Assembly: GCA_028285365.1 (NCBI GenBank)
Contig: JANQPS010001277.1
Span: forward strand, 1 to 43,632
Direction: 5' to 3'
Length of the DNA stretch: 43,632 nt
Source of the DNA: Thermoanaerobaculia bacterium
Lineage (GTDB): Bacteria > Acidobacteriota > Thermoanaerobaculia > Multivoradales > Multivoraceae
The position numbers were made by a program, and so were the translations under genes. The notes under the pieces were generated by a model. That model searched no databases, had not been told where the DNA came from, and was given only the letters and a program-made list of their open reading frames with translations. Positions 3,001 through 37,456 of the stretch are shown here, one piece after another (within the stretch, counting starts at the first letter, position 1; each line of letters starts with the position of its first letter).

Positions 3001-5470
3001 GGTGATTTTTCCCGAGTCGGCGATCTCGACGTTTACGGACGGCGAGGGACGAACGGTCTCGATGGCCGGCGACCGGTTCGGTCAGGCCGCCGAGACCACG
3101 GACTCCGCGGGCTTGGTGACGATCCGAGAGTTCGCTCCCGAAGGGCCACGCACCCGCGAAGAGCTACCCAGTGGGCACGTCCGAACGGCGACCTACGACG
3201 AGCTCGGCAATCGACTCTCAGTAACCGACGAGGAAATCGCCGGCACGTTTACCTTTACCTACGAGCAGAGCCTTCAACAGCTCGAGACGTTTACCGATCC
3301 GTTCGGGAACACAACGACAATGACCCACGACCCGAGCGGCAACCCCACGTCGATCACCACGCAGGAAAGCCGCCTCGACACCTTCACCTACACCCCCGAA
3401 GGTCAGCTGGACACCTGGGTCGACCGCCTCGGCACGACCACCGACATCACCTACGACACCGAAGGCCTGATCGAGCAGGTCGATCGCGGCACCGGACCAA
3501 CACTGCGAACGACGAACTTCACGCGGACAGTCGAAGGTTACCTCGACACCTTCGCCGACCCGGAAGGCCGGATCTACGACCTCGACTACGACGCCTTCGG
3601 ACGACCGCTCAGTCTCACGCACCCAGACGGAGAAGCCGTCACAGCCACACGGGATCAGGAGGGGCGTCTGGACTCCATCACCCCTCCCGGGAAGCCCACG
3701 CACTTCATGAGCTACAGCAACAGTGGCCGCCTTGCCGGCTACCACCCGCCTCCGATCGGCGGCACTGTGGACACGACCTATACCTTCGATCTCGCCCAGC
3801 AGCTGACACAGATCGATCGCCCGGACGGCCGCAGCGTGGAGTTCACCTATGACACGGCAGGACGGCTCTCGTCGACCGAGATCGAGCGCGGCACCACGAC
3901 GTACACCTACGGACCATCGAGCGGCCTGATCACGTCGATCGAGGCTCCAGGCAGCGAAACCCTGGCGTTCGCATACCAGGGAGAGCGAGCCGTCGGCCAG
4001 ACGTGGTCCGGCAGTGTCGCCGCCAGCTACGAGCGTACTTTCGACGCGGCCGGCAGGATCGCCACCGAGTCCGTCAACGGCTCCAACTCAATCACTTTTG
4101 CCTACGACGGTGACAGTCTCCTCACCACCTCCGGACCGCTCACGATCACACGCGACACCTCCTCTGGTTTGATCACCGCTTCGTCGTTGGGCCAGGTAAC
4201 AGACACCTGGACCTACAACGAGTTTGGCGAGCTGGTCGGCTATCAGGCTTCGCATAGTGGTACGCCGTTCTTCGAGTACACGCTGACACTCGACATGCTG
4301 GGGCGCATCATCGCGGAGAGCGAGACGATCGGCGGTGTCAGCACCGACTACGACTACGACTACGACCTCCGTGGACGCCTCGAGCAGGTCGACCAGAACT
4401 CGGCGCTGAGCGCGGCCTATACCTACGACGACAACAGCAACCGACTCACTCGCAGTGATGGTGCGCAAACCGAGACCGGCACCTACGACGATCAAGATCG
4501 CGCCACGACCTACAACGGCGCCACCTACGCCTACCGTCAGAGCGGCGAGCTCCTGAGCAAGACCGACAGTGGCGGCACGACGACCTACGACTACGACGAG
4601 AACGGCAACCTGCTGTCCGTCGCGCGACCTGACGGCGTCGTCGTGTCTTACGTGATCGACGGCCTGGATCGCCGAATCGGCAAGGCGATCGACGGGACAC
4701 TGGTCCAGGGGTTCGTCTACAGGGACGTTCTACATCCGGTAGCCGAGCTCGACGGCTCCGGGGCAGTTGTTTCTCGCTTCATCTATGGGACGCGAGCGCA
4801 CGTACCGGACGTCATGCAGCGAGGCGGAGTGACCTATCGCTTGGTGAGCGACCAGATCGGCAGCGTGCGACTCGTCGTCGACACGACCAGCGGCGCCGTC
4901 GCCCAGCGCCTCGACTATGACGAGTTCGGCAGGGTGTTGTCAGACACGAACCCAGGATTCCAGCCGTTCGGCTTCGCTGGCGGCCTATACGACTCCGATA
5001 CAGGACTCGTTCACTTCGATGCCCGAGACTACGACCCCAACGTAGGACGCTGGACCGCAAAAGACCCGATCGGGTTCGCCGGCGGCTCGCCGAACCTTTA
5101 CGAATACGTGTCCTCTGATCCGTTGAGGCAGTTCGACCCGACTGGGCTCCAACCTTCAGAACACCACCAAGCCCTCCAGAGAATCATCGACAACTTCCAT
5201 GAGGAGCTGACCAAGAACGGCCTGGGCCCCGCACCACCGGCGGCGGGAGCACCGATCGGGGGCTTCGGGGGTTCCATGTTGACCGGCAACATGACCGACG
5301 AGCAAATCACAGAGTTGATTCAACTCCACGAAGAGTTCGTGCGTGAGATGCAGAGCAAGGCGAAGTTCGACAGCATGGAGCAAGTACTCGACGAAGCCCT
5401 CGAGATCATTCCGAAACCCGGAGAGCAGACGGACTTCGGGCGACCTGTGGGAGGTAAAATCTGTATCTAG
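2..5470 (+). CDS. Secreted RHS/YD-repeat protein with adhesin-like N-terminal domains and a short divergent C-terminal tail
   Basis: 1822-aa ORF from ATG 2 with a signal-peptide-like N-terminus (AVLAGLSILLTPLSHAAEP). Ig/cadherin-like segment (SITLTASDPTDDPLSFSV...LTFTVSDG). CarboxypepD_reg-like segment (GRVLDANDAAV...DASGNFTL). Thrombospondin-C/LamG-like segment (DFDDDIIGLVLGYQ..GFILFDWKQ..GRIGFYNHSQ). Many YD repeats (YDxxGRL / DxxGN). RHS core end motif DPIGFAGGSPNLYEYVSSDPLRQFDPTGL ends at nt 5149, followed by a 106-aa tail. Confidence 0.9.
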   Translation: MLSSLSRVFPEGAVVAVLAGLSILLTPLSHAAEPASDLSTTAGGQSVIFSSSFETGNTNAWALVIGDPRPMLDPIGNLAVDLGTILSITLTASDPTDDPLSFSVSPLPLPTGATLDSASGAFTFQPGAAQVGQHVLTFTVSDGQFTDSETVILTVNGPPKGGQTGLTGRVLDANDAAVGTMTPIVGVTVSLLGTGFSTTTDASGNFTLVGTPSGDRVLDLDTATAAPAPDGSPYAGFRENYFLIDGVTNVVERPLFLPRLDMGSETQVDPEQTTIVDNPELGATLTLVPHSAKNPDGSDFDGVITISEVPREFAPAELPSELDPGLLITIQPVGVTFDPPAPLTFPDVDGLPPGALVDLWSLDPDRGVFVVVGTGEAQGDGTIQTIGGGVRAADWHTVLPQPPRVKSSDDEDPECDGCCDPASCSSGSSVVLRTGELTEEVTLPAYRSQGQERAASLRYSSLRAHPTKLMPLDVTVPAAGPVPPLMSYRVRVGGVEQDEPVFVDTSVLDQGGASGPIVIGDPEYRISAFYDASDLPTGVYPISVRTTSHFPNSNVSTDPEDEIVLVNDRGSAFGAGWGMQGLQRIYEQDDGTLLLVDGDGIARRFSVSFAPDLTGWMEELNYPDGSFRAAEWVVAPDGLSVTQIEFNAFGLSTFISPFDFYGEALFRIRVNTDFDDDIIGLVLGYQRPVLSAGDPENDMGFILFDWKQTSQDLFCGTRPEGTRLLQILGDIPSGDATCVFTAHPPPPGQARVLGTDFGDGRGWQDETEHEIRVVYERNRIQIDVDGEPVYDVSGIFPEGRIGFYNHSQLDVTYSVSYPTNITVLEGPPGDVTTITRNPDATFTRAFPDGTTIDFDAAGLMTTLTDRNGNATNYGYDISGRLTTITDPIGLETTLNYAGGTLDTITDPAGRVTEFIHDGNGNLVDISYPDGTTRSFDYDHEHRLISQVDQRGLETNYEFDFLGRLERSLLPDGAERSTRNVQGVGVVDTSGGLGSEGNPAPVIFPESAISTFTDGEGRTVSMAGDRFGQAAETTDSAGLVTIREFAPEGPRTREELPSGHVRTATYDELGNRLSVTDEEIAGTFTFTYEQSLQQLETFTDPFGNTTTMTHDPSGNPTSITTQESRLDTFTYTPEGQLDTWVDRLGTTTDITYDTEGLIEQVDRGTGPTLRTTNFTRTVEGYLDTFADPEGRIYDLDYDAFGRPLSLTHPDGEAVTATRDQEGRLDSITPPGKPTHFMSYSNSGRLAGYHPPPIGGTVDTTYTFDLAQQLTQIDRPDGRSVEFTYDTAGRLSSTEIERGTTTYTYGPSSGLITSIEAPGSETLAFAYQGERAVGQTWSGSVAASYERTFDAAGRIATESVNGSNSITFAYDGDSLLTTSGPLTITRDTSSGLITASSLGQVTDTWTYNEFGELVGYQASHSGTPFFEYTLTLDMLGRIIAESETIGGVSTDYDYDYDLRGRLEQVDQNSALSAAYTYDDNSNRLTRSDGAQTETGTYDDQDRATTYNGATYAYRQSGELLSKTDSGGTTTYDYDENGNLLSVARPDGVVVSYVIDGLDRRIGKAIDGTLVQGFVYRDVLHPVAELDGSGAVVSRFIYGTRAHVPDVMQRGGVTYRLVSDQIGSVRLVVDTTSGAVAQRLDYDEFGRVLSDTNPGFQPFGFAGGLYDSDTGLVHFDARDYDPNVGRWTAKDPIGFAGGSPNLYEYVSSDPLRQFDPTGLQPSEHHQALQRIIDNFHEELTKNGLGPAPPAAGAPIGGFGGSMLTGNMTDEQITELIQLHEEFVREMQSKAKFDSMEQVLDEALEIIPKPGEQTDFGRPVGGKICI

Positions 5471-10506: not shown

Positions 10507-12882
10507 ATGATCTGGATTACCGAAGCGCTGCGCGCAACCCTGGACCTGCTATTCGAGGCCGCACCTTACGTTCTCTTCGGCCTCTTGATCGCCGGTCTGA
10601 TCCACGTACTCCTGCCACAAGCCGTCGTGCTGCGCTGGCTCAGTCGTCCTGGTCTGTCTGGTGTGATTCGAGCTGCGGTGATTGGAGTCCCTCTGCCCAT
10701 CTGCAGCTGTGGCGTCGTGCCCATCGCGCTCGAGCTCCGTCGTAAGGGAGCTTCGTCACCGGCAACGCAGTCGTTTCTCATCACGACGCCCGAATCATCG
10801 GTCGACTCGATCGTGCTCACGTGGGGTCTCATGGGCCCGGTGATGGCCGTCGCTCGACCGGTCGCAGCGTTCTTCACGGCAATCGTCGGCGGCGTGCTGT
10901 CGATCGTCGGCGCGCGTTCGGTAAAAGAGCTGACGGAGCTCGAAACCGGTCGAGGTCTGCTCGAAGCCAAAGGTCACGAACATCATCACCATCATCACCA
11001 TCATCACCATCATCATCACGGTCACCATCACCATCATCATGGCCCCGAACACCATGGTCTCGATGAACCCGACGAGCTCGGAGACTCCCAAAGCCTAGAG
11101 GGTGACTCGTCGCCTGAGCCGTCTGAGCTGGAGCGGCGAGAGTCGCAAACCGACTTGCTAGACGACGGCGAATCCGGCAGCTCTGCCAGCTGGAGCATGA
11201 GCTTCAAGAGGGGCTGGCAACGAGTGATGCTGCCGAGCCTGCGTTTCGGCTTCGGCGAAATGCTCGATGACCTCGCCTTCTGGCTCGTCGTCGGAATCGT
11301 GCTGGCGGGAGGCGTGACGGTCCTGCTGCCGAGTGATCTCCTGGGCCTCGGACTCGGAGGCGGCATTCTCCCGGTGATCCTCGCTCTCATCGTCAGCGTG
11401 CCGATCTACATGTGTGCGTCGGCAAGCACGCCCATCGCCGCTGCGCTCATGGCCAAAGGCCTCAGCCCAGGTGCCGCGCTGGTCTTTCTGCTGGCTGGTC
11501 CGGCAACCAACGTCGCGACGATCCTGCTTCTCAACCAGGCTTTCGGCAGGCGGTTCGTCAAGATCTATCTCGCGAGCGTGGTTGCGGGAGCTCTCGCCTC
11601 CGGTCTCACTCTCGACTTCTTGATCAGCGAGCTGCAGATGGACGCGATCATCCCCGGCTCTTCCGAGCCTGGGCTCATCGCCATCGCTTCAGGTGTCGTG
11701 CTGGCCCTGCTGTTGCTGCGCAGCCTCTACCGCGGCGCGTGGAGTCACGGCATCGCCGAGCTACGCTCGTCCTGGGCCCAACTATCGCCCAAGTCAGCTG
11801 TCGGCAGGAGGAGACCATCTCTGGGGGTCATCCTGGCCCTCGTCGTCGTGCTCGGCTACCTCGGCACGGGCATCAGGGTCGTACCCGAGAATTCCATGGG
11901 TTACGGCTTTACCTTCGGTGCGTTGACCAAAGAGGGTGCGCCTCCAGGACTGCACTATCACCCTCCAGCACCGTTCGGCAGCTGGGATCTGCGACGGGTC
12001 GACTACCCTCGCAAGACGGACATCGGGTTCCGTACCGACCTCCGCGTTCTCGCAACGCGCGAAGGCCTCGATCGCACGACGGCGCGAGACTGGCACAGCC
12101 CGCTCGCAGCCATGAACCCGAAGCCGGAACAGGCAACGTTCGTCACGAGTGACAACAACCTCGTCGAACTGGCTTTCAGCGTCCACTACGGACTCTCCAC
12201 GCCGTTCACCTTCCTGTACGAGCTCAGTCACGAGCACGACATCGTCAACCTCTATGCAGAGTCAGTGGCGAGGGAGCTCATCGTCTCGAAGACTCTCGAC
12301 CAGCTCTTGACCTCCCAGCGCTCTCAGCTCGAGGAGAAGATTGCGGCCGAGCTGCAGGTCCACCTCGATCGCAACGAGATCGGAGTCGAGGTGCGCTCCG
12401 TTCACTTTGTCGACGTCCATCCACCGACCGAAGCCGTCGGGGCGTTTCGCGACGTTTCGAGCGCGCTCGAAGAGCGAGCGACCAGAGTCCACCGGGCACA
12501 TCTGCGCGCTGCCAGATCGGTACCGCTCGCACGGGGCGAAGCCACCAAGCTGCTCGCTCAGGCCGAAGCCGAATCCAACGCGCGCAGCCGCGAGGCAGAC
12601 GCTCGCCTCGAGTCGTTCACTCCCATGTCGAAAGCGTTCGCGATGGCGCCTCAGATTCTCGAGAACCTCCTGTCGACAGAGGCTTCGGAGCGCATGCTCT
12701 CCGGAAGACGCAAGATCGTCATCGACAGTTCCAGGGACTTCGGGTCCATCACCTTCTGGGACCCGCAGCTGGTAGCGCCACCAACGGGATCGAGGCGCGG
12801 AACCTTCCTCGACTCGCAGCTCGACTCAGCTCCACCAGCGCGTCGAGACATCACACCACCACCACCCATAGACCACCACTAA
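10507..12882 (+). CDS. Fusion protein: PF03773/SO_0444-like metal permease with a poly-His cytoplasmic loop, joined to a C-terminal HflK-like TM + SPFH/band-7 module
   Basis: 791 aa. Permease half 1 has the GVPLPICSCGVVPIALELRRKG motif. Loop KGHEHHHHHHHHHHHHHGHHHHHHGPEHHG (nt ~10975-11055) plus an acidic stretch. Permease half 2 (PIYMCASASTPIAAALMAKGLSPGAALVFLLAGPATN). New TM helix LGVILALVVVLGYLG (~nt 11821), then an HflK-like core (GLHYHPPAPFGSWDLRRVD...TSDNNLVELAFSVHY...VEVRSVHFVDVHPPTEAVGAFRDV) and a coiled-coil tail (ARGEATKLLAQAEAESNARSREADARL). Confidence 0.85.
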   Translation: MIWITEALRATLDLLFEAAPYVLFGLLIAGLIHVLLPQAVVLRWLSRPGLSGVIRAAVIGVPLPICSCGVVPIALELRRKGASSPATQSFLITTPESSVDSIVLTWGLMGPVMAVARPVAAFFTAIVGGVLSIVGARSVKELTELETGRGLLEAKGHEHHHHHHHHHHHHHGHHHHHHGPEHHGLDEPDELGDSQSLEGDSSPEPSELERRESQTDLLDDGESGSSASWSMSFKRGWQRVMLPSLRFGFGEMLDDLAFWLVVGIVLAGGVTVLLPSDLLGLGLGGGILPVILALIVSVPIYMCASASTPIAAALMAKGLSPGAALVFLLAGPATNVATILLLNQAFGRRFVKIYLASVVAGALASGLTLDFLISELQMDAIIPGSSEPGLIAIASGVVLALLLLRSLYRGAWSHGIAELRSSWAQLSPKSAVGRRRPSLGVILALVVVLGYLGTGIRVVPENSMGYGFTFGALTKEGAPPGLHYHPPAPFGSWDLRRVDYPRKTDIGFRTDLRVLATREGLDRTTARDWHSPLAAMNPKPEQATFVTSDNNLVELAFSVHYGLSTPFTFLYELSHEHDIVNLYAESVARELIVSKTLDQLLTSQRSQLEEKIAAELQVHLDRNEIGVEVRSVHFVDVHPPTEAVGAFRDVSSALEERATRVHRAHLRAARSVPLARGEATKLLAQAEAESNARSREADARLESFTPMSKAFAMAPQILENLLSTEASERMLSGRRKIVIDSSRDFGSITFWDPQLVAPPTGSRRGTFLDSQLDSAPPARRDITPPPPIDHH

Positions 12883-12916
12883 AAGATCGCAACGACCTCG
12901 CCATGAGAATCTCACC

Positions 12917-13801
12917 ATGAAGTCACTCACTCGTCGTATCGCCTACGGCGTCGCAGTCGCCGTGATCCTCCTGGTCCTACCGACCTGCTTCTTCACCGTC
13001 CAAGAGACGGAGATAGGACTGGTCACCCGGTTCGGGCGCCCGGTGCAGGAGGAAGCCAAGCCGGGTCTACACGTCAAGCTTCCCTGGCCGATCGAAAAGG
13101 TTCTGTCGGTGGACCAACGCCTCCTGGTCTTCGACAACGAGCCGACCGAGATGCTGACGCGAGACAAGCGCAACGTCGTCGTCGACTCGTTTCTGCTCTG
13201 GCGGATCTCGGATCCGCTGAGGTACGTTCAGACGGTCGGACACCGGTTGGAAGCGGAAGCTCGACTGCTGGATCTCGCAACCTCCGAACTTGGCGCCGCA
13301 ATCGGGTCGGTGCCGATGGAGAGTCTCATCAACCCGGATCCCGCCAAGGTCGAGCTGCGCCAGGTCGGGTCGGCGGCGGCGGCAGCCATTCGCACGACGG
13401 CCGTAGAGTCCTACGGCATCGATGTCGTGGATCTGAGGATCAACGGGTTCAACATGCCGCGCCAGAATCGCGCCAGCGTCATTGAACGCATGAGAGCGGA
13501 GCGCGAGCGGATCGCCGCTGGATTTCGCAGCGAAGGCGAAGAGCAAGCACTCGAAATCGAAGCCGAAGCGACCAAGGCGAAAGAAATCCTCCTCGCCGAA
13601 GCACGAGCCCAAGCAGAGATCATCCGAGGGACGGGTGAAGCCGAGGCCCTGCAGACCCTCGCAGAGGCGTATCGGCAGAACCCCGCTTTCTACCGGCTTC
13701 TGCGGTCACTCGAGAGTCTGGAGGAGATCGTCGACGATGACACGACGGTCTTCCTCGACGCCAACTCCGAGCTGTTGGAGGCGCTCCGTGCCCTCAACTG
13801 A
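12917..13801 (+). CDS. HflC-like SPFH/band-7 protein
   Basis: 294 aa. N-terminal TM (VAVAVILLVLPTCFF). FTVQETEIGLVTRFGRPV..PGLHVKLPWPIEKVLSVDQR; DVVDLRINGFNMPRQN; coiled-coil RAERERIAAGFRSEGEEQALEIEAEA. Confidence 0.85.
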   Translation: MKSLTRRIAYGVAVAVILLVLPTCFFTVQETEIGLVTRFGRPVQEEAKPGLHVKLPWPIEKVLSVDQRLLVFDNEPTEMLTRDKRNVVVDSFLLWRISDPLRYVQTVGHRLEAEARLLDLATSELGAAIGSVPMESLINPDPAKVELRQVGSAAAAAIRTTAVESYGIDVVDLRINGFNMPRQNRASVIERMRAERERIAAGFRSEGEEQALEIEAEATKAKEILLAEARAQAEIIRGTGEAEALQTLAEAYRQNPAFYRLLRSLESLEEIVDDDTTVFLDANSELLEALRALN

Positions 13802-15940: not shown

Positions 15941-16005
15941 CTTTTCTGTGTCTAGACTTTTCTGTGCCTAGACATTTCTGTGCCTAGACCTGTTCTGGGC
16001 CTAGA
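15941..16005. repeat. 16-bp tandem repeat x4 (CTTTTCTGTGYCTAGA), containing palindromic GTCTAGAC / GCCTAGAC cores
   Basis: Units 15941-15956 CTTTTCTGTGTCTAGA, 15957-15972 CTTTTCTGTGCCTAGA, 15973-15988 CATTTCTGTGCCTAGA, and degenerate 15989-16005 CCTGTTCTGGGCCTAGA. The last unit contains the stop codon (16001-16003) of the minus-strand His-rich protein gene. Confidence 0.95.
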
Positions 16006-16666
16006 ACTGGAGGGTGCCGGAACTGCCCTTGAGCCTGATCTCATCCTGACGTTCGGCGGACAGGACGATGACGTCGACTTGTTCGATCCCGGTCAGCAAG
16101 CTCGACCAGTTGAAGGTTGCCGTGGTTCCGGAAATCGAGCGACCACACTTGACCGACCACTGCACGTGGACATCGCTGTGACCATGGCCTTCGTCGTGGT
16201 CATGGCCAGACTTCTCACTCTCGTCGTGGTGGCCATGATCGTCGTCATGATCGTCATGGTGATCGTCGCCATGGTCATCGTGATGGTCGTCATGACTCTC
16301 CGTGTCGCGCGCTCCCAGGCTCTCGAAACGGCAATCGAGAGACGAGTCGAAGACCAGGGCATTGCCAAGCCCGGTCTCCAGACGACGCATGCCTTCGGCC
16401 TGCTGCTTGCGCTCCGCTTCGTTTTTCGGCTCGTGCTCGAATCCATAGACCGACTCGCCAGGAACCAGGAGCTCGACCACCAGCTCTTGCTCGGTCTCCA
16501 TCGCGATGTTGAGCTCGGCCTTGCCGTGCTCGTGCGCCGCATGCTGGGCCAACGCTGGCGTCATTGCCGCGAGCCCGAAGAGCAGGCCAGCCAGGATTCC
16601 TCTCGCCACAGACCGGAACTCCGAAGTCAGGCCTCCGTTGCACCTCACGTCTCGAGTCTCTCTCAT
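16001..16666 (-). CDS. His-rich periplasmic metal-binding protein, ZrgA / PA4063-like (DUF2796-type)
   Basis: 221 aa. Signal peptide (ILAGLLFGLAAMTPALAQH). Conserved-looking HAAHEHGKAELNIA start. Central run ESHDDHHDDHGDDHHDDHDDDHGHHDESEKSGHDHDEGHGHSDVH (nt 16166-16300). Sits in a cluster with a MacB-like ABC pair and DUF3299 genes, as in the Zur-regulated zrg/PA4063-66 operons. Confidence 0.7.
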   Translation of the reverse strand: MRETRDVRCNGGLTSEFRSVARGILAGLLFGLAAMTPALAQHAAHEHGKAELNIAMETEQELVVELLVPGESVYGFEHEPKNEAERKQQAEGMRRLETGLGNALVFDSSLDCRFESLGARDTESHDDHHDDHGDDHHDDHDDDHGHHDESEKSGHDHDEGHGHSDVHVQWSVKCGRSISGTTATFNWSSLLTGIEQVDVIVLSAERQDEIRLKGSSGTLQF

Positions 16667-16776
16667 GCTTACACTCCCAAGGTTTCGGTACCAGAATTGT
16701 CCAGCGAGCGCCCAGGAGTGTTGCTGCCAGCTACAGCTGTTCGGGGGTGCGTCGAGCTACGACGCGCGACCCCGGT

Positions 16777-17829
16777 TCACCAGCGGTAGATCTCGGCCGA
16801 ATCACCCGCGAGCTCGAACCCCACCGCCCCGTAGGGGCTTTCCGTTACACCAACAGACAGTTTCCCGGTGACCCACAATGGATCCCAGCCCCACGGGTCG
16901 ATGGGCTTGGCGCCCTTCTTCAGGCGCACGTGAACCATCTGGTTGGGCGGGGGCGTCGGTTCGTGAATGCAGGCGCCTAGCCAAGGCGCAAGCAGAAACT
17001 CCATCCCGTCTTCGTCGAGGGGAACGACGTAGCCGGGGATCTTGACCGTCTCGTCGACCACCTCGGTCAACTCGGGGCCCGTCTTACCTGTCGCCACGTC
17101 GAGCTGGGCGAGGATGTCCCAACCCACCTTCTTCACCCCGTCCTCGGACTCCTCGATCGCCGGCGCCATGGCCATGGCTGATGACGGCAACGAGCGTGGT
17201 CCGACGTAGAAGTAGAGAACCGCAGTCAGGCATGAGACAACGAGGAGCGAGTCCGCGATTCGACGCACCGTAGCTCGGGGCGGAGCGGGCTCAGCTAGCT
17301 GGCAGGTATCCATCGATACTCTCCTCCAGTGTCCAGTGATCATGAGAAGACCACCTACGACCGGAATGACTTCACTCGTCGCGTAGAGGCTCTCGAGAAT
17401 GCGACCCGTGACCAGTAGGAACAACCCACCGACAAGGATCAATTCCGACCACTCTACCCTCGAATCGGTCGCCGTGGCATGAGAGCCGCCACGTCGAACG
17501 CTGAGCACGACCAGGAGTGCGGAGCCAGAGATAGCCAACCAACGCCAGCGCGGATCGAACCAGGAGGTGCCACCCGACAATGCCATCAGTGCCGGAAGAG
17601 CGAGCAGCACGGCACAGTGTAGTGTGCACACCGCCGCCGCGAGGACGCCCAGCCGGTCAATCCATCGGGGTCCCAGAACCGGCGAGATCGTGTGAAAATC
17701 GAACTGCTGCCGTTCCGCCCCCAAGGGAGTTCGTCGAGAAGGTCCAGCATCTGCTTCGACCAGACGAGCTACCGCCGATCCGTCCGACTGGCTATCCAAG
17801 TCGTGGCCGGCAAAAAGGACCCTTGACAT
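16777..17829 (-). CDS. Fusion: MerC-like 4-TM domain + extra TM + periplasmic DUF3299 domain
   Basis: 350 aa. MerC-like first helix IDRLGVLAAAVCTLHCAVLLALPALMAL and later ITGHWRR. C-terminal DUF3299 signature VKIPGYVVPLDEDGMEFLLAPWLGACIHEPTPPPNQMVHV...SPYGAVGFEL. Confidence 0.75.
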   Translation of the reverse strand: MSRVLFAGHDLDSQSDGSAVARLVEADAGPSRRTPLGAERQQFDFHTISPVLGPRWIDRLGVLAAAVCTLHCAVLLALPALMALSGGTSWFDPRWRWLAISGSALLVVLSVRRGGSHATATDSRVEWSELILVGGLFLLVTGRILESLYATSEVIPVVGGLLMITGHWRRVSMDTCQLAEPAPPRATVRRIADSLLVVSCLTAVLYFYVGPRSLPSSAMAMAPAIEESEDGVKKVGWDILAQLDVATGKTGPELTEVVDETVKIPGYVVPLDEDGMEFLLAPWLGACIHEPTPPPNQMVHVRLKKGAKPIDPWGWDPLWVTGKLSVGVTESPYGAVGFELAGDSAEIYRW

Positions 17830-17833
17830 GCCC

Positions 17834-17870
17834 TTAATGATAATGAATTCTCAATTACAAGTCAATTACT
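17834..17870. promoter_or_regulatory. AT-rich Fur/Zur-box-like operator in an 87-bp divergent promoter region
   Basis: TTAATGATAATGAATTCTCAATTACAAGTCAATTACT is the only strongly AT-rich island I saw in the window. TAATGATAAT (17835-17844) matches positions 3-12 of the classical Fur box GATAATGATAATCATTATC (about 12/19 overall). Direct repeat TCAATTAC at 17851-17858 and 17862-17869. Located between divergent genes 16777-17829 (-) and 17917-18630 (+). Confidence 0.5.
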
Positions 17871-17916
17871 TCCAAGTCGAGAATCACCGTGACAAACGCT
17901 GCAACGAGAGCCTTCC

Positions 17917-18630
17917 ATGACGGCCGATAACGGAGACACAGCGGTCATCGAGGTCCGCGACCTCAAGTTCCACTACGGCCGCAAAGCAGGTGCGTCGTTG
18001 GTCCTCGACATCGAAGAGTTCCTCCTGAAGAAGGGCGAACGCATGTTCGTCTACGGTCCCAGCGGTTGCGGCAAGACCACGCTGCTCGGCGTGGTGGCTG
18101 GCGTACTCGAGCCGGTCGACGGCATCGTCCGAATCCTGGGTCAGGACCTCACCGAGCTGTCGGCCGCTCGCAGAGACACCTTCCGCGCCGACCACATCGG
18201 CTACATCTTCCAGATGTTCAACCTACTGCCCTACCTGAGCGTGCTCGACAACATCCTGCTGCCGGTTGCCATGAGCAAGGCCCGACGATCTCGCGTCGGT
18301 TCGCAAGCAAAAGCTGCCGCAACCACTCTGGCCGAGCACCTCGGTCTAGAGTCCCGTCTCGATGCCCTCGGCGGTGAGCTCAGCGTGGGTCAACAACAGC
18401 GAGTGGCCGCCGCTCGGGCTCTCATCGGTGGCCCCGAGCTGATCATTGCCGACGAGCCCACGTCGGCACTCGACACCGACCGGAGAACAGCATTCCTGGA
18501 GCTCCTCTTCGAAGAGTGCAACGCGGCAGGAGCGAGCCTCTTGTTCGTGAGCCATGACCGCACGCTCGAGTCGATGTTCGATCGTGTGCTGGAGCTCCCT
18601 GACATCAACCGAGTGAAGACCTTGGCATGA
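17917..18630 (+). CDS. ABC transporter ATP-binding protein, MacB/LolD-like (ZrgB / PA4064-like)
   Basis: 237 aa. Walker A GPSGCGKTT, Q-loop IFQMFNLLP, signature LSVGQQQRVAAARAL, Walker B LIIADEPTSALD, H-loop VSHD. Confidence 0.92.
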   Translation: MTADNGDTAVIEVRDLKFHYGRKAGASLVLDIEEFLLKKGERMFVYGPSGCGKTTLLGVVAGVLEPVDGIVRILGQDLTELSAARRDTFRADHIGYIFQMFNLLPYLSVLDNILLPVAMSKARRSRVGSQAKAAATTLAEHLGLESRLDALGGELSVGQQQRVAAARALIGGPELIIADEPTSALDTDRRTAFLELLFEECNAAGASLLFVSHDRTLESMFDRVLELPDINRVKTLA

Positions 18631-19910
18631 TCATCAGGCTCTCTCTTTCGTCTCTCAACAGCCGCCGGCTCGCGACAGCACTGACAGTGCTCTCGCTGGC
18701 GCTCTCCGTGGCTCTACTTCTCGGCGTCGAGCAGGTCCGCACCGGAGTCCGCGAGAGCTTCTCGAACACGATCAGCGGAACCGACCTCATCGTCGGCACT
18801 CGAGTGGGCCAACTGCAGCTGATCCTGTTCACCGTCTTTGGCATCGGCTCGACGCCCGCCAATATCTCGTACGACACTCTCGAGAAGTATCGCGAGCACC
18901 CGGCCGTCGAGTGGGCGGTACCGTTTTCGCTCGGTGACAGCCACCGAGGTTTCCGAGTCGTCGGCACGACGGAGGAGTACTTCGAGAAGTACCGCTACCG
19001 CCGGGATCGCGGCATCAGGCTTGCCGAAGGCACGGTCCCGAAACGCATACTCGATGCCACGGTCGGTCATCAAGTGGCGCGCGAGCTCGACTATCAGGTT
19101 GGTCAGAAGATCATCATCACCCACGGCATCTCCGGAGCGCCGGGGATCTCTGACCACGACGATTCGCCCTTTACGATCGTCGGCATCCTCGACCGGACTG
19201 CGACCCCCATCGACCGGACGGTGTACATCACCCTGGAGGGTATGGAGGCCATCCACGAGGACGGCCCCCCCACTCTGTCCACCGGCCCGCCGCCTACTGC
19301 AACGGCAGTGCAGGAACCGGCAAACCCGTCGGTCGAGGACAGGGCGGGTCCACCTGCCGAGTCCATCACCGCCTTTTTTGTCGGCGTCAAGTCTCGAATC
19401 GACACCCTCCGTCTGCAACGAGAGATCAACACCGACGAAAGCGAGCCTCTACAGGCGATCATTCCGGGGGTTGCGCTCGCGGAGCTCTGGCGTGGCATCG
19501 ACATGGCGGACACCGCCCTCAAAGCAGTCGTTGCTCTCGTCGTCCTCGTGGGCCTGCTGGGGATGCTGATCTCTCTGCTTTCGACGCTGAACGAGCGTCG
19601 GCGCGAAATGGCAATCCTTCGCGCACTCGGCGCACGACCGAAGATCATCGCCATTCTGCTGGTGATCGAGGCCGGATTGCTGAGTGTCGCCGGAGTCCTT
19701 CTGGGACTCCTCCTGAACTACGGACTGCTGGCCGGCGCGCAGCCGATCGTCGAGAGAGCGTTCGGACTGGCCCTACCAATCCGAGCGCCCAACCAGTTCG
19801 AGCTGATGGCGCTGCTCTTCGTCATCGTCGCCGGCGTCCTGGCCGGCCTGGTGCCCGCCTTTCGCGCCTACCGCAATGCGCTGTCCGACGGTCTGGCCAT
19901 GAAGGTCTGA
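18627..19910 (+). CDS. FtsX/MacB-type ABC permease with a periplasmic domain (ZrgC / PA4065-like)
   Basis: 427 aa. 4-nt ATGA overlap with the ATPase gene. N-terminal TM (LATALTVLSLALSVALLLGV), large periplasmic insert, and a C-terminal FtsX 3-TM bundle (RREMAILRALGARPKIIAILLVIEAGLL). Confidence 0.88.
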   Translation: MIIRLSLSSLNSRRLATALTVLSLALSVALLLGVEQVRTGVRESFSNTISGTDLIVGTRVGQLQLILFTVFGIGSTPANISYDTLEKYREHPAVEWAVPFSLGDSHRGFRVVGTTEEYFEKYRYRRDRGIRLAEGTVPKRILDATVGHQVARELDYQVGQKIIITHGISGAPGISDHDDSPFTIVGILDRTATPIDRTVYITLEGMEAIHEDGPPTLSTGPPPTATAVQEPANPSVEDRAGPPAESITAFFVGVKSRIDTLRLQREINTDESEPLQAIIPGVALAELWRGIDMADTALKAVVALVVLVGLLGMLISLLSTLNERRREMAILRALGARPKIIAILLVIEAGLLSVAGVLLGLLLNYGLLAGAQPIVERAFGLALPIRAPNQFELMALLFVIVAGVLAGLVPAFRAYRNALSDGLAMKV

Positions 19911-19931
19911 CCGCATGTCCGCGGTCGGCGC

Positions 19932-20465
19932 CTACCAGTCTTCGTCTTCAGCCAGTCCGTCGGCGAACTTGACGCTCGCCTGGGCCTTCATCGAAAACCC
20001 GACCGCGCCCCAAGGACTGTCGTTGTCGGTAACGCTCAGAACCCCGACCGCCCATATGGGCCCTTGCGTCCACAGGTCGAACTCGACTTCGACCCCTTCC
20101 TCCATCTCTACCAGGATCATCTGGTTCGGCGCGGGAGGCGGCAGGTGGACACAAGCTCCGAAGTTGGGAACGAGTAAGAACGTAGACACCTTGCTCAGCG
20201 AGTCCTCGAACGGCACGATGAAACCTGCAATCCTCACGACAGGGCCCAGCAGAGTGTCCAGAGTCGGCGACACCGCACCGGTGGAGAGATTGAGATCCGC
20301 CAGATCGCGCCAGTCGGCCCGCGGCAGATTGCCGGGCCACTCGGATCCGCCCGAGCAAGACATCATGAGCGCAGCGATGCACAAGACGAGCGCTGCGCAG
20401 CGTCGTCGCGGCCTGAGGCCGCAAAACGCTCGCGAAGAGCTGTCTTTAGATCTGAGGAACGTCAT
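19932..20465 (-). CDS. DUF3299 lipoprotein (ZrgD / PA4066-like)
   Basis: Trimmed from the 364-aa ORF to ATG 20465 (MTFLRSK...CAALVLCIAALMMSCSGG; lipobox MMSC), giving 177 aa. DUF3299 signature VRIAGFIVPFED..FLLVPNFGACVHLPPPAPNQMILV..SPWGAVGFSM. The longer ORF would overlap the Fur-family gene on the other strand. Confidence 0.85.
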   Translation of the reverse strand: MTFLRSKDSSSRAFCGLRPRRRCAALVLCIAALMMSCSGGSEWPGNLPRADWRDLADLNLSTGAVSPTLDTLLGPVVRIAGFIVPFEDSLSKVSTFLLVPNFGACVHLPPPAPNQMILVEMEEGVEVEFDLWTQGPIWAVGVLSVTDNDSPWGAVGFSMKAQASVKFADGLAEDEDW

Positions 20466-20693: not shown

Positions 20694-21107
20694 ATGGCGA
20701 TCCGAAAAACAAGGCAGCGCGCTGCGATCCGCGAAGCTCTCGAGCGAGCGCACCGGCCCATGAGTCCACAGGAGCTTCTCGAGGCTGCCCGGAACGACGC
20801 GCCGTCGCTGAGTATTGCCACCGTCTACAGAGCGCTGCGTGACCTCGAAGACTCCGGATTCCTGCGTTCGGTTTCCATTCCGCACCAGTCGCCACTCTAC
20901 GAGCGGGCGGGAACCGGACATCACCACCACTTCTGCTGCCAGCACTGCGATCGGGTCTTTGACATCCACGCTTGTCCGGCAGGCCTCGAAGACCTGGCTC
21001 CGGCGGGCTTCGTCGTAGAGAGTCACGACATCGTGCTCTACGGATGTTGTGCCACGTGCAGGCTCGACGAGACGGCCGAAGACTCAGCGGAGCCTTCTCC
21101 GTCGTAG
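20694..21107 (+). CDS. Fur-family metalloregulator (Zur-like candidate) #1
   Basis: 137 aa. Winged-helix N-domain (RKTRQRAAIREALERAHRPMSPQELL..SIATVYRALRDLEDSGFL), metal sites GHHHHFCCQHCDRVF and CCATC. Confidence 0.88.
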   Translation: MAIRKTRQRAAIREALERAHRPMSPQELLEAARNDAPSLSIATVYRALRDLEDSGFLRSVSIPHQSPLYERAGTGHHHHFCCQHCDRVFDIHACPAGLEDLAPAGFVVESHDIVLYGCCATCRLDETAEDSAEPSPS

Positions 21108-33800: not shown

Positions 33801-34895
33801 TTAGTCGCGCGCGCTCATCTCTAGAAGCGCCCGCTCCACCTCGTCGAGATCAGGGATCTCGTCACCGTCCAGAATGACCTCGATCCGCGAGTCCCGGCGA
33901 TAGGCCGACGGGCGCCCGTCTCGCATTTCTTTAGTGAGGTTGAAGCTCCACCAGCCGTCCTCGGTTCTCAAGACGGCCTTGGTTCGTCGCGCGTTGGGTA
34001 GGCGGGTCAGGTCCGCGAGGAGACGGACGGCCTTCTCGGACTCGAGCACGAGCTCTTTCGAGCACACCCAACCGATCGTCGAAGTCGACGGGGAGATGTG
34101 ACACCGCCTGATGATCACATTCGACGCATCGGGAGCCGGCTCTTGCGTGTCGGTTTCATCGCCTCCGGCATCTGCAGTGCCCGCGTCATGGACGTGAGGG
34201 TGGTGATGGTCTGTGCCGTGCCCGTAGCTTTCGGAGCGTCGGATGGGGGCGTCATCGACGACGGCGTCGAGCATCTCCAGCGTGATGCGTCCTTGCTCGA
34301 CACAGCCGACGTAGCTCTTCGCGGGAAAGATCGCGTTGGCCCACTCGAGGAAGTCTTCGATCTCCTCCTCGCTCGCGAGATCGACGCGATTGGCCAGCAG
34401 AATGTCGGCCGACTCGATCTGGTCTTCGACCTCCTCGCGAACCCGGTCCTGGGCGACCGTCGTGGCGTCGAGCAGGCAAATCGTCGACCGAACGTCGATG
34501 CGTTCCCGTATGTGCTTGCTGCCGAGCGTGTCGAGAATTCCCGAAAGCGCCGCCAGCCCGCTCGGTTCGATCAAGATACGGTCAGGCTGCTGATCGAGCA
34601 GAACTGCTAGGGAAATCTCGAAGAGGAGACCGGCGCTGCAGCAGATGCAGCCGCCGGCAACCTCGCGGACATCGATGCCGTCCGAGGATGCCGAGTCGGC
34701 AAGCAACGCAGCGTCCAGACCGACGAGTCCGTACTCGTTGACCAACACCGCCCAGCGCTCACCTCTTGGCCGGTTCTCTAGAAGGTGCGCGATGGCGGTC
34801 GTCTTGCCGACTCCCAGAGAACCGACAACGAGGTTGACCGGCACCTTCTTGCCGTCGCTGCTGTGGTGATCGACGCAATCAGCGCTGGTGGTCAT
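33801..34895 (-). CDS. COG0523/CobW-family GTPase metallochaperone #2 with a His-rich linker
   Basis: 364 aa. Walker A GSLGVGKTTAI, GGCICCSA (CxCC), IEPSGLA, His-rich ESYGHGTDHHHPHVHDAG, CobW_C-like tail. Confidence 0.85.
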   Translation of the reverse strand: MTTSADCVDHHSSDGKKVPVNLVVGSLGVGKTTAIAHLLENRPRGERWAVLVNEYGLVGLDAALLADSASSDGIDVREVAGGCICCSAGLLFEISLAVLLDQQPDRILIEPSGLAALSGILDTLGSKHIRERIDVRSTICLLDATTVAQDRVREEVEDQIESADILLANRVDLASEEEIEDFLEWANAIFPAKSYVGCVEQGRITLEMLDAVVDDAPIRRSESYGHGTDHHHPHVHDAGTADAGGDETDTQEPAPDASNVIIRRCHISPSTSTIGWVCSKELVLESEKAVRLLADLTRLPNARRTKAVLRTEDGWWSFNLTKEMRDGRPSAYRRDSRIEVILDGDEIPDLDEVERALLEMSARD

Positions 34896-34948
34896 GGGTC
34901 GGAACTCGTCGGAGGCCTGCGTCTTGCTGCTTGCTTCTTCCCGGAACG

Positions 34949-37456
34949 CTACTGCTGGCGAAGCGCCACGATGGGAGGCACCCCACTCGCCCGACGCGCG
35001 GGCAGATAAGACGCGAGCGCAGCAATTGTGCTCAGTACGACGACTGAGCCGAGCAAGAGCAACGGATTCCAGGACGCAAGGCCCGGCACGACGCGCTCGA
35101 GTGCCTGCGTGATCACGACCGCGCCTACGAGGCCGATGGCAATTCCGAGCGCGACCAGCCTCATGGAGGAGCCCATGGTCGCGCCCAGCACCGCGCGCCG
35201 GGACGCGCCGAGCGCGATCCGGATCCCGAGCTCCCGCGACCGCTCGGCGAGCGCAAAGGAGAGAACCCCGTAGATTCCGACCCCGGCGAGCGTCAGGGCA
35301 ATGGCTCCGAAGGCCACGAGGAGTACACCTGACAGTCGCTCCTGCCAGATTCGATCGGCCACCCGCTGTTCCATCGGCACGATATCGAAGATCGATTGCT
35401 CCGGATCTACGCGTTGGATGGCGCTGGCGACAGCCTCCTTGTAAGCCATGATCTCGGTCTCGCTAGTCGCGTTCGGCACACGGATCAGGTAGTAGCCGTC
35501 TCCCGCGAAGAGCTGCTCACTCGAGATGTAGACGTCCAGACCACCGGCGCTATGCACGGACTGATGGTGGACGTCAGCCGCCACACCCACGACCGTGATC
35601 CAGGGATTCTCGGACTCCTCCTCTCCCGAAAGAGTCACGCTATTGACGCGATCCCCGAGCTGGAACCGCTTGCCGAGCGCACTTTGCCTTGGCCAGAAGC
35701 GCTCCGCCAATCGGCGGCTGACGACGGCCTTGGGCGGCTGGCGCGCGTCGTCGAACACTGTGAAAGCCTCCCCCTGTAGTAGAGGCACCCGGAAGACCTC
35801 GAAGTAGTTGGGGCTCGTGATCTGGAGATTCACGAACGGGTTGCGCTCGATCTCCTCCGCCGATTGACCAAAAACACGAATCGACTCGGTAGGAGCCTGG
35901 TGGGCCGCAAGCGGTGGATTTGTGTTCATGGCCGCGGCCTCGACGCCCGGCAGACGTCCGAGCTCCTCGACCGCCCTTCGATGGAAGGGTGCGGTCTGTT
36001 CGCGAGTTCCGTAGTTCGTCCACGGAGGATCGGCGCGGAAGGTCAGCACGTTCGAAGGCTCGAATCCGAGGTCGGTGGCGCGCAGCTGCCACAACTTCTG
36101 CAGCGTGACGCCGGCCGCTACCAGGAGCATGAGGGCAAGTGCCGTCTCAGCCACGACCAGTGCTCCTCGCGTTCGCCCGGAACCGATACCGGACGAACCC
36201 TTGGCACCGTCCTGAAGCCAGCGAATCAAGCTCTCGCTTGTCGACTGGAGCGCGGGAGCGAGCCCCGAGCCGAGCCCTGCGAGAAGCGCCACCAGGAACG
36301 TGAAGACAAAGACGTTTCGATCGAGCTCGACCGTCATCCAGAGAGGCAGCTCCAGACGCACGACGGAGACGAGAAAGCGCAGCGACCCCCACGCCATCAA
36401 GAGACCGAGAGCGGCACCTAGAAAGCTCAAGCACAGACTCTCGAAAAGGTGCTGGGCCACGACCCGCGAGCGGGACGCACCGAGGGCGAGCTGAAGTGCG
36501 GTCTCACGGCTTCTGCCGGTCGCGCGGGTCAACAGGAGATTCACGACGTTCGTACATGCAATCAGCAGAACGAGTGCGACCGCACCCAGCAGGAAGAGAA
36601 GGTAGGCCCGCGATCCACCCACAAACGTGTCTCGAAGAGGTTTGAGCGCAAAATCCACTCCCCGGTTCGACTCGGGGAATGACTGCGCCATGCGCTCTGC
36701 GATTGCAGCAATCTGCTCCTGTGCCTGCTCGGGGGTAGCGCCGTCCGCCAGTCGCGCCACGACCATCCCCCGGCGCTGGTCGAGCCCCTGCTCGGCCCCC
36801 CAGAGGGTTATGGCCCGAAACAGCCCCACTTCTGCAGGGAAGTGGAAGCCACGAGGCGTCACTCCATTGATCCGATAGACCGCGGCATCGAGCGTGATCG
36901 TCTTGCCGACGATGTCGGGATCCGCTCCGAGTCGTGTCCAGAGCGCATGGCTCAGGATCACGTCGTAGTCGATGCCCTTCTCGACCCCTGCCTGCCACGG
37001 CTCGCCGTAGAGCAGATCGACCCCCAGAACCGAGAACAGACTCTCCGTGTTGATGGTGCTGAGCACCGCTTCGGGCTCGCCGGCGCCCGTCATGTTGTAC
37101 TGGCTGGGATAGTAGACAGCGACATCCTCGAACAGATCCGCCTCGCGCTCGAGTGCTGCGACCTCGCGCGCGGTCAAGCGACCGGGCTCCTCGCCCACCA
37201 AAGCCTGCACGTTCACGAGTCGATCCGGTCGCTCGAACGGCATCGGGCGCAGCAGCAGCGCGTTCACGAAGCTGAAGACGGCCGAGTTGGCACCGATCCC
37301 GAGAGCGAGCGTTATCACGACGACGGCAGTGAAGCCGGGATGTCGCGTCAACGAACGAAGGGTTCCCTTGAGCATGAGCCGAGACGTACCGTTGCCAATC
37401 ATGCGTTCCTCCTGCATCGGCTCGCACCGCGGTGCAGGCCGTGAACTCGATCGCAA
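34949..37456 (-). CDS. ADOP-family duplicated MacB/FtsX-like permease (orphan, no cognate MacB ATPase adjacent) #1
   Basis: 835 aa; the true start may be ATG 37402 (MIGNG..). LRSLTRHPGFTAVVVITLALGIGANSAVFS opening, two MacB periplasmic-domain + FtsX 4-TM modules (ETALQLALGASRSRVV.. and ELGIRIALGASRRAVL..). Confidence 0.88.
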   Translation of the reverse strand: MRSSSRPAPRCEPMQEERMIGNGTSRLMLKGTLRSLTRHPGFTAVVVITLALGIGANSAVFSFVNALLLRPMPFERPDRLVNVQALVGEEPGRLTAREVAALEREADLFEDVAVYYPSQYNMTGAGEPEAVLSTINTESLFSVLGVDLLYGEPWQAGVEKGIDYDVILSHALWTRLGADPDIVGKTITLDAAVYRINGVTPRGFHFPAEVGLFRAITLWGAEQGLDQRRGMVVARLADGATPEQAQEQIAAIAERMAQSFPESNRGVDFALKPLRDTFVGGSRAYLLFLLGAVALVLLIACTNVVNLLLTRATGRSRETALQLALGASRSRVVAQHLFESLCLSFLGAALGLLMAWGSLRFLVSVVRLELPLWMTVELDRNVFVFTFLVALLAGLGSGLAPALQSTSESLIRWLQDGAKGSSGIGSGRTRGALVVAETALALMLLVAAGVTLQKLWQLRATDLGFEPSNVLTFRADPPWTNYGTREQTAPFHRRAVEELGRLPGVEAAAMNTNPPLAAHQAPTESIRVFGQSAEEIERNPFVNLQITSPNYFEVFRVPLLQGEAFTVFDDARQPPKAVVSRRLAERFWPRQSALGKRFQLGDRVNSVTLSGEEESENPWITVVGVAADVHHQSVHSAGGLDVYISSEQLFAGDGYYLIRVPNATSETEIMAYKEAVASAIQRVDPEQSIFDIVPMEQRVADRIWQERLSGVLLVAFGAIALTLAGVGIYGVLSFALAERSRELGIRIALGASRRAVLGATMGSSMRLVALGIAIGLVGAVVITQALERVVPGLASWNPLLLLGSVVVLSTIAALASYLPARRASGVPPIVALRQQ

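Follow-up and report, generated by a model that had tools for sequence, protein, structure and literature searches.

When zinc runs short, Vibrio and Pseudomonas strongly induce their Zrg/PA4063-66 systems, the mechanism of which is disputed: a permease of the MacB fold is not expected to import, the DUF3299 component has been solved structurally but has no known function, and one study favours export. How, then, could such a system serve metal uptake? The question is raised by a gene on contig JANQPS010001277.1 of a Thermoanaerobaculia bacterium (Acidobacteriota; assembly GCA_028285365.1), of which positions 1 to 43,632, referred to as the window, were analysed. The gene joins a domain like that of the mercury-uptake protein MerC to a DUF3299 domain and is part of a cluster that is, by gene content, of the Zrg/PA4063-66 type and linked to a Fur-family gene. 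Its product is strongly predicted to be one inner-membrane protein with a cytoplasmic N-terminus, a MerC-like bundle, a fifth helix and, on a linker of about 15 residues, a DUF3299 domain of the oligonucleotide/oligosaccharide-binding (OB) fold in the periplasm. We give about an even chance to the reading that a periplasmic OB-fold metal donor (DUF3299) is here tethered to a MerC-like inner-membrane metal permease; the metal, the direction of transport and the role of the neighbouring ATP-binding cassette (ABC) pair are what we infer.

Judged by Pfam profiles, the fused gene is a formal member of both families, and the earlier note was right to divide it into a MerC-type N-terminal and a DUF3299 C-terminal part. 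Both profiles scored above their cut-offs, MerC (PF03203) with 38.9 bits (cut-off 27.6; E 1.5e-9; residues 58-169, profile positions 1-105 of 108) and DUF3299 (PF11736) with 90.8 bits (cut-off 22; residues 255-344), and the motifs that had been quoted (IDRLGVLAAAVCTLHCAVLLALPAL, GHWRR and FLLAPWLGACIHEPTPPPNQMVHV) are all present. By phmmer, the C-terminal part was matched to PDB entry 4HSP, a structural-genomics structure of Pseudomonas aeruginosa PA4066 (E 6e-15), with which it has the GACIH-PPPP-NQ loop in common. A model of the fusion was computed with AlphaFold2 from an alignment of 79 rows, which carries short mis-placed tails only (mean predicted local distance difference test score, pLDDT, 75.5). 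Its top fold match in Foldseek was again 4HSP (E 9e-8; TM-score 0.63 on the target), followed by OB-fold domains. NCBIfam has no model for the MerC-like subfamily and gave no match at E <= 1, including to any model that it may contain for mer-operon MerC; word-index searches for homologues were uninformative (0 matches for the whole protein, 1 for the DUF3299 region).

Five long helices (residues 56-84, 93-116, 123-148, 154-176 and 186-209) were delimited by AlphaFold2 and hydropathy. The fifth is followed in the model by a disordered linker (residues 210-225) and then by the beta-rich DUF3299 domain. Basic residues are grouped before helix 1, between helices 2 and 3 (RR at 112-113) and between helices 4 and 5 (five Arg in the loop 170-190). 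Because these Arg/Lys-rich loops all lie on one side, the positive-inside rule, combined with the fifth helix, predicts an N-in, C-out protein with DUF3299 in the periplasm, in agreement with the proposal made earlier for a domain behind an extra transmembrane helix. The MerC-like domain is accordingly predicted to cross the membrane four times and to begin and end on the cytoplasmic side, and the signal anchors or lipoprotein signals found on stand-alone DUF3299 proteins agree with the periplasmic placing.

Conservation was examined in alignments of MerC-like proteins (39 rows, three phyla) and of DUF3299 domains (43 rows). C68, H71 and C72, the CxxHC motif of the first helix, are each present in 39/39 MerC-like rows and are spaced by a single turn, about halfway along the helix; H167 in helix 4 is kept in 38/39 rows, and D58 at the cytoplasmic end of helix 1 and E153 at the periplasmic start of helix 4 are kept in 37/39 each. 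In DUF3299, residues A286, C287, H289, P291, P293, P294, N296 and Q297 are each found in 43/43 rows; E277 is essentially invariant, like the GACIH loop, which sits between strands 277-281 and 299-303 of the model.

In the mechanism that we propose, a divalent metal, in all likelihood Zn(II), would cross the membrane through the MerC-like domain. The metal would enter at the periplasmic carboxylate E153, pass a mid-membrane site made of C68/H71/C72 with H167, and exit to the cytoplasm by way of D58. The periplasmic donor would be the tethered DUF3299 domain, which carries the invariant Cys287/His289 loop and would be loaded by the His-rich ZrgA, by the periplasmic domain of the MacB-type ABC motor, or by both, acting upstream. 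Such a path would be analogous to the thiol relay for Hg(II) from MerP to MerT/MerC: MerC takes up Hg(II), and MerP in the periplasm passes Hg to membrane cysteines (PMC5715351 and references therein). Import across the membrane is not expected of the MacB fold itself (PMC11481552, PMC9820375).

The public gene call on the same DNA (P0001) is a protein of 178 amino acids (aa) that begins at M173. Over 8376 base pairs (bp), the contig behind it (Logan assembly L003) shows 100% identity to the window; it may stem from the same coral-metagenome sample and is therefore not independent of the window. All runs in which the sequence was found are DNA runs of a coral metagenome. Since the DNA is identical, P0001 and the 350-aa open reading frame differ by the choice of start site, not by a stop or a frameshift. 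A missed stop or frameshift was rejected in view of this second assembly and of the conservation of the fusion in other lineages: in-frame fusions with 31-40% identity to the window protein occur in three of them (L001, L164 and L002), which upholds the earlier view that the two domains are physically fused.

The gene call does raise the alternative that this organism does not make the fused protein, the functional product being the 178-aa anchored DUF3299 protein from M173 and the MerC stretch decaying or untranslated. It would explain why a strong Shine-Dalgarno sequence (GGAGGAG, 9 nucleotides (nt) before the ATG of M173) is found within the W-R-R codons at the end of the MerC domain, why the closest relative found (L163, described below) encodes the same architecture, why ATG 17829 is without a usable Shine-Dalgarno sequence, and why two MerC consensus residues are altered. 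We nevertheless hold it to be very improbable. Over 172 codons the MerC frame is uninterrupted, its Pfam score exceeds the cut-off, and CxxHC, D58, E153 and H167 are all retained. A promoter-like TTGACT-17-TATCAT, overlapped by an operator-like palindrome, stops 7 nt before ATG 17829 in an AT-rich island of the 87-bp divergent intergenic region, which would fit a leaderless mRNA. In L164 and L002, no Met or Shine-Dalgarno sequence precedes helix 5, so the fused protein is the only possible product there. GGAGGAG before M173 was not seen in the other three fusions; in the window it may be a relic of a two-gene state or a means of making a second, MerC-less product, and an anchored 178-aa DUF3299 protein resembling that of L163 is a possible second product.

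The palindrome, TGATAATGAATTCTCA, is a candidate operator of the Fur/Zur family, and regulation of the fusion may be read from this box. It is the sole match in the window to a pattern that was derived from the same site, so the statistics are weak. Related boxes were found upstream of the fusion in L001 (TGATAATGAAATATCATTA) and directly before the merC ATG in a Gemmatimonas locus (L032; ATTATCATTAA), the latter with an 11-mer identical to that of the window.

Further fusions were sought by an exhaustive HMMER search over 1.84 billion protein representatives. Two clusters of full-length fusions were found in the top 150 matches considered, P0002 (L001; 321 aa, 40% identity) and P0098 (L002; 359 aa), and the third fusion, L164, came from a permease-anchored genome scan. 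In 4/4 loci, zrgA directly follows the fusion: the two genes are 110 nt apart in the window, in L001 by 8 nt and in L002 by 73 nt, and in L164 they overlap as ATGA. Such recurrent in-frame fusions, each with zrgA behind it, mark the fusion as selected. It is also rare: when DUF3299 loci were sought in 185,579 species genomes, no fusion was found in the best 80, and no further one among the best 80 metagenome DUF3299 loci, which yielded one more Gemmatimonas-type merC-DUF3299 pair (L264).

The origin of the fusion was traced with a tree of 170 DUF3299 domains, with branch support from the Shimodaira-Hasegawa-like approximate likelihood-ratio test (SH-aLRT). The closest relative found, L163, is an Acidobacteriota metagenome-assembled genome (MAG; permease identity 81%, DUF3299 identity 82%) with the same layout as the window, zrgA / DUF3299 / ABC / permease / DUF3299. 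The fused DUF3299 domain of the window groups with its L163 counterpart (SH-aLRT 99), and both group with the fusions L001 and L164 (SH-aLRT 98). Most simply, the fusion arose once in this Acidobacteriota clade and L163 later lost the MerC moiety, although two independent gains would fit as well. The fusion L002 lies among Gemmatimonadaceae, on a long branch without support, which suggests a second, independent fusion in a Gemmatimonadota-like lineage.

Two-gene precursors of the kind required still exist: in the Gemmatimonas MAGs L030 and L032 and in the metagenome contig L264, merC is followed 68 nt on by a DUF3299 gene with its own Shine-Dalgarno sequence and signal anchor. Helix 5 of the window protein is the counterpart of the signal anchor of stand-alone DUF3299. 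Judged by this comparative layout, the fusion would have arisen when a merC-like gene became joined to the DUF3299 gene behind it, at the part that encodes the signal anchor. As a side observation, the DUF3299 frame of L032 (L032:3461-4561, plus strand) is open backwards across the whole of merC, which is read in a different frame. High GC content probably accounts for this, and one 1-nt indel in L032 would make a merC-DUF3299 fusion.

Coordinates of the features discussed are collected in the table.

Table. Features of the fusion gene, its product and its neighbours in the window (res, residues; TM, transmembrane).
Feature	Position	Strand	Basis and remarks
MerC-like/TM5/DUF3299 fusion, coding sequence	16777..17829	(-)	350 codons open; stop TGA 16777-16779; both Pfam domains in one frame
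N-terminal ~55 residues	17665..17829	(-)	predicted cytoplasmic and disordered; pLDDT <50 over res 1-50; unconserved in three-fusion alignment
MerC-like four-helix domain, res 58-169	17323..17658	(-)	PF03203 profile; helices from AlphaFold2
Fifth TM helix, res 186-209	17203..17274	(-)	hydropathy, charge distribution, AlphaFold2; aligns with N-terminal anchor of unfused L163 orthologue
DUF3299 OB-like domain, predicted periplasmic, res 226-350	16780..17154	(-)	PF11736; PDB 4HSP match; pLDDT mostly >90; Foldseek
TM1 motif C68-T-L-H71-C72 (CxxHC)	17614..17628	(-)	codons read directly; invariant in MerC-like rows
DUF3299 loop G-A-C287-I-H289-x-P-x-P-P-P-N296-Q297	16939..16977	(-)	invariant in DUF3299 rows
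Internal ATG of M173 (17311-17313) with GGAGGAG (17321-17327)	17311..17327	(-)	upstream sequence GACACTGGAGGAGAGTATCG-ATG; start of P0001; equivalent of L163 architecture
Promoter-like TTGACT-17-TATCAT with palindrome TGATAATGAATTCTCA (17838-17853)	17837..17865	(-)	promoter scan, 10/12 matches
zrgA-like gene, His/Asp-rich periplasmic zinc-binding protein	16001..16666	(-)	110 nt downstream of fusion; PF10986 ZrgA, 121 bits
ABC ATPase of Zrg/MacB-type pair	17917..18630	(+)	divergent from fusion; PF00005; nearest NCBIfam types LolD, DevA, FtsE
MacB/FtsX-type permease, 4 TM and periplasmic core domain	18627..19910	(+)	PF12704 MacB_PCD, PF02687 FtsX
Second, free DUF3299 paralogue, probably lipoprotein	19932..20465	(-)	PF11736, 95.7 bits; presumed start ATG 20465
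Fur-family regulator, candidate Zur	20694..21107	(+)	PF01475, 73.7 bits

Genes for ZrgA, the ABC ATPase, the FtsX/MacB-type permease and DUF3299 all lie within 16001-20465, clustered as in Zrg-type systems, and the fusion probably shares a transcript with zrgA. Zinc binding in vitro is on record for the ZrgA proteins of V. cholerae and P. aeruginosa (PMC9820375, PMC8561739); for the zrgA-like gene of the window, NCBIfam ZrgA_Zn_trans scored 114.9 bits, which is under its cut-off. The free DUF3299 paralogue has 38% identity to the fused domain and a signal peptide with a Cys; its L163 orthologue carries the signal LLCAGC. The regulator is probably Zur, although its NCBIfam scores do not separate Zur from Fur, PerR and Irr. 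Zinc is supported by the markers of zinc starvation in which the window is rich: ZrgA, two COG0523 genes, a TonB-dependent receptor and an ArsP_1 permease with a poly-His stretch. Permease genes of the ArsP_1 family (PF03773) lie near MerC, DUF3299 and ZrgA at several loci (window 10507-12882, plus strand; L001:1264-2958 and 11777-13330; L032:1463-3286). Elsewhere in the window, the second COG0523-type GTPase gene (33801-34895) adjoins a gene for a permease of 835 aa with two MacB_PCD/FtsX modules (34949-37456; both on the minus strand); the stretch 33801-37456 may encode a further MacB-type system linked to metal within this island.

Stand-alone MerC-like genes were surveyed in two sets of loci, one anchored on the MerC-like gene (78 loci) and one on the permease (76 loci). 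The MerC-like profile was built from an alignment of Acidobacteriota only; an alignment of eight MerC sequences was too divergent for a pattern scan. A Zrg-type permease adjoins merC in 19/22 MerC-anchored loci of Acidobacteriota, and the complete loci have the order DUF3299-ZrgA-ABC ATPase-MacB-type permease-MerC. Among Sphingobacteriaceae (Pedobacter), MerC-ABC-permease was found in 16-17 of the 23 loci and a Fur-family gene in 14. One such locus, from Pedobacter steynii (L106:5671-10320), encodes a MerC-like protein (85 bits with PF03203), an ABC ATPase, a MacB/FtsX permease, a protein of 147 aa with a weak DUF3299 match (E 0.015) and then a Fur-family protein, and a COG0523 GTPase gene is divergent from them; it resembles a ZrgA-less zinc-starvation operon of the Zrg type headed by merC. 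In loci of the Chitinophagaceae type, a Fur-family gene stands beside merC and the ABC pair is absent (31/33). A MerC-like protein can thus work without ZrgBC, and its occurrence as a lone gene with a Fur-family regulator suggests an autonomous membrane function.

Permease-anchored loci contained DUF3299 in 67/76 cases, ZrgA in 45/76, a separate MerC-like gene in 20/76 and a fusion in 1/76. MerC-like proteins are, by these counts, a recurrent but optional partner of Zrg-type systems. The functional link between MerC and DUF3299 suggested by the earlier note is borne out in so far as stand-alone merC-like genes share operons with DUF3299, ZrgA and the ABC pair in Acidobacteriota and lie directly upstream of DUF3299 in Gemmatimonas. 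It does not extend to DUF3299 as a whole: feeding MerC is not the general job of this family, because 67/76 loci have DUF3299 and 21/76 have MerC. DUF3299 is repeatedly duplicated in Zrg-type loci of Acidobacteriota; three or four paralogues surround the ABC pair on one Bryobacteraceae contig (L045/L104/L173) and in L165, L166 and L175, and the window has two.

The census also bears on the metal. A softer one than zinc, such as Cu(I), Cd(II), Co(II), Ni(II) or Hg(II), could be bound by CxxHC and the lone periplasmic Cys of DUF3299, in which case the regulator would not be Zur. A site rich in Cys suits thiophilic metals, and the metal carried by MerC is Hg(II) (PMC5715351); in P. aeruginosa, PA4063-66 has been tied to cobalt (PMC11481552); the regulator of the window is not told apart from Fur, PerR or Irr by NCBIfam; and at one Chitinophagales locus a merC-like gene is divergent from a gene of the copper-associated SCO1/SenC fold. 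Against these points stand ZrgA, the two COG0523 genes and the His-rich proteins around the fusion, the COG0523 gene divergent from merC in Pedobacter, and the Zur and zinc regulation of the Vibrio Zrg systems (PMC9817125). MerR, MerA, CopA and CusF-type genes are not found in the cluster. A metal other than zinc is in our estimate improbable, and Zn(II) is retained as the most likely substrate. The Chitinophagales locus (L144:5718-7883) has Fur-family and SCO1/SenC-like genes divergent from merC-like, a DUF4440/SnoaL-like gene after it and no ABC pair; SCO1 could hint at copper rather than zinc there. Of the Chitinophagaceae-type loci, this is the one in which the full layout was examined.

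Several observations weigh against a fusion protein that conducts metal. The inter-domain geometry of the model is unreliable (predicted TM-score, pTM, 0.56; disordered linker). Consensus E96 (periplasmic, start of helix 2; 37/39 MerC-like proteins) is Arg in the window protein (17542-17544, minus strand), consensus H122 (cytoplasmic) is Asp, and the Cys-rich cytoplasmic tail of stand-alone MerC-like forms (CC, CxxC, HxH) is replaced by the loop to helix 5. The strong internal ribosome-binding site at M173 could yield a MerC-less product. In L163, the DUF3299 protein corresponding to the fusion (3617-4204, minus strand) is 195 aa long and carries just an anchor; MerC is missing from this site, which lies 29 bp from the ABC gene (4234-4959, plus strand). 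In 55/76 sampled Zrg-type loci MerC is absent. The PA4066 structure shows no evident zinc binding, as reported, and PA4064/65 have been argued to export pyochelin-cobalt and not to import zinc, the mutants accumulating pyochelin and cobalt (PMC11481552). Knockouts of V. cholerae zrgE had no phenotype (PMC9820375). ArsP_1 permeases, some of them with poly-His loops, are an alternative candidate for the inner-membrane metal route. Of the two altered consensus positions, R96 occurs also in P0002, that is, in two of the three fused proteins aligned, and Glu is retained in the Gemmatimonadota-like fusion P0098.

Part of this evidence would suit a MerC-like bundle that is no conduit and merely docks or anchors DUF3299 beside ZrgBC. 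The system would then act in the periplasm or outwards only (metal stripping, hand-over or metallophore export), and entry into the cytoplasm would be left to ArsP_1, ZnuBC or ZIP. DUF3299 is near-universal in Zrg-type loci and MerC is not, L163 does with a plain signal anchor, and ArsP_1 permeases lie beside fusion loci. The MacB fold, moreover, works by mechanotransmission in the periplasm, and mutants of PA4064/65 build up pyochelin and cobalt (PMC11481552). The Cys, His, Cys, Glu and His residues that are invariant within the helices across three phyla would, however, be superfluous in a mere anchor; MerC-like genes also stand with a Fur-family gene and no ABC pair in nearly all Chitinophagaceae-type loci, and canonical MerC is a metal uptake protein (PMC5715351). 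We consider docking without conduction unlikely.

Keeping to the tethered donor and permease, a wider proposal is put forward tentatively and as falling short of an even chance. CxxHC MerC-like proteins may be widespread zinc importers under Fur/Zur control and provide the missing translocation step of Zrg/PA4063-66-type systems, with DUF3299 as their OB-fold metallochaperone. The MacB-type ABC pair would be no conduit; driven by ATP, it would take metal in the periplasm from ZrgA (or from a receptor in the outer membrane) and load it onto DUF3299 and MerC, and the fusion would be the key to that complex.

Compared with the literature searched, the covalent MerC-DUF3299 architecture is new, as is the recurrence of CxxHC MerC-like genes in Zrg-type and Fur/COG0523-linked operons; no link of MerC to Zur, zinc, Zrg or COG0523 was found there. 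The fusion and the recurrent MerC-like genes, present in at least three phyla, lead to a model that can be tested by mutation, with a donor domain, a channel with named ligands and an ATP-driven helper. Two open questions, the role of DUF3299 and the way in which a MacB-fold system could serve metal uptake, are thereby made experimental. If the model is true, the MerC family extends from mercury detoxification to nutrient-metal uptake, and the annotation "MerC domain-containing protein" in Bacteroidota, Acidobacteriota and Gemmatimonadota would be read differently.

The cluster is like Vibrio ZrgABCDE and PA4063-PA4066 in having ZrgA (PF10986), a split MacB-type ABC ATPase/FtsX permease, DUF3299 and a Fur-family gene. 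The earlier note had called DUF3299 the fourth gene of the zrg operons; membership of the Zrg-type family stands, and the position needs correction, since the DUF3299 gene of V. parahaemolyticus is zrgE and zrgD encodes DUF2607 (PMC9817125), the counterpart in P. aeruginosa being PA4066. Unlike the Vibrio and Pseudomonas systems, the window joins one DUF3299 copy to a MerC-like domain and carries a second, free DUF3299 lipoprotein; its genes are arranged in divergent and convergent units with a Fur-family gene of their own, and DUF2607 (ZrgD) is absent. For the Vibrio or Pseudomonas systems, a MerC-like component is undescribed in the literature searched.

With Tn21-type MerC the fusion shares membership of PF03203, four transmembrane helices, cysteines in the first helix and a proposed periplasmic donor. 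Unlike the MerC of mer operons, it is found in a window without a mer operon, MerR or MerA, and the setting is metal starvation, not detoxification. Because this context is lacking and NCBIfam gave no match, the fusion is not regarded as a mer-operon MerC. In the first helix of the window protein, C68 and C72 stand in CxxHC with an invariant His, which may set it apart from the plain Cys pair of canonical mer-operon MerC.

The periplasmic partner is a DUF3299 OB fold, unlike MerP, which is ferredoxin-like. A small OB-type beta-barrel that carries metal to a membrane transporter in the periplasm is known in CusF of the Cu(I)/Ag(I) system CusCFBA; CusF has an efflux role and Met/His/Trp ligands, as against Cys/His in the DUF3299 loop. 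We know of no sequence relationship between CusF and DUF3299, and CusF was not in the top 50 Foldseek matches of the model. PA4066 (4HSP) is of the same family and fold as residues 226-350 of the fusion, but it is a soluble periplasmic protein, whereas in the domain described here a transmembrane helix provides the tether to a MerC-like bundle.

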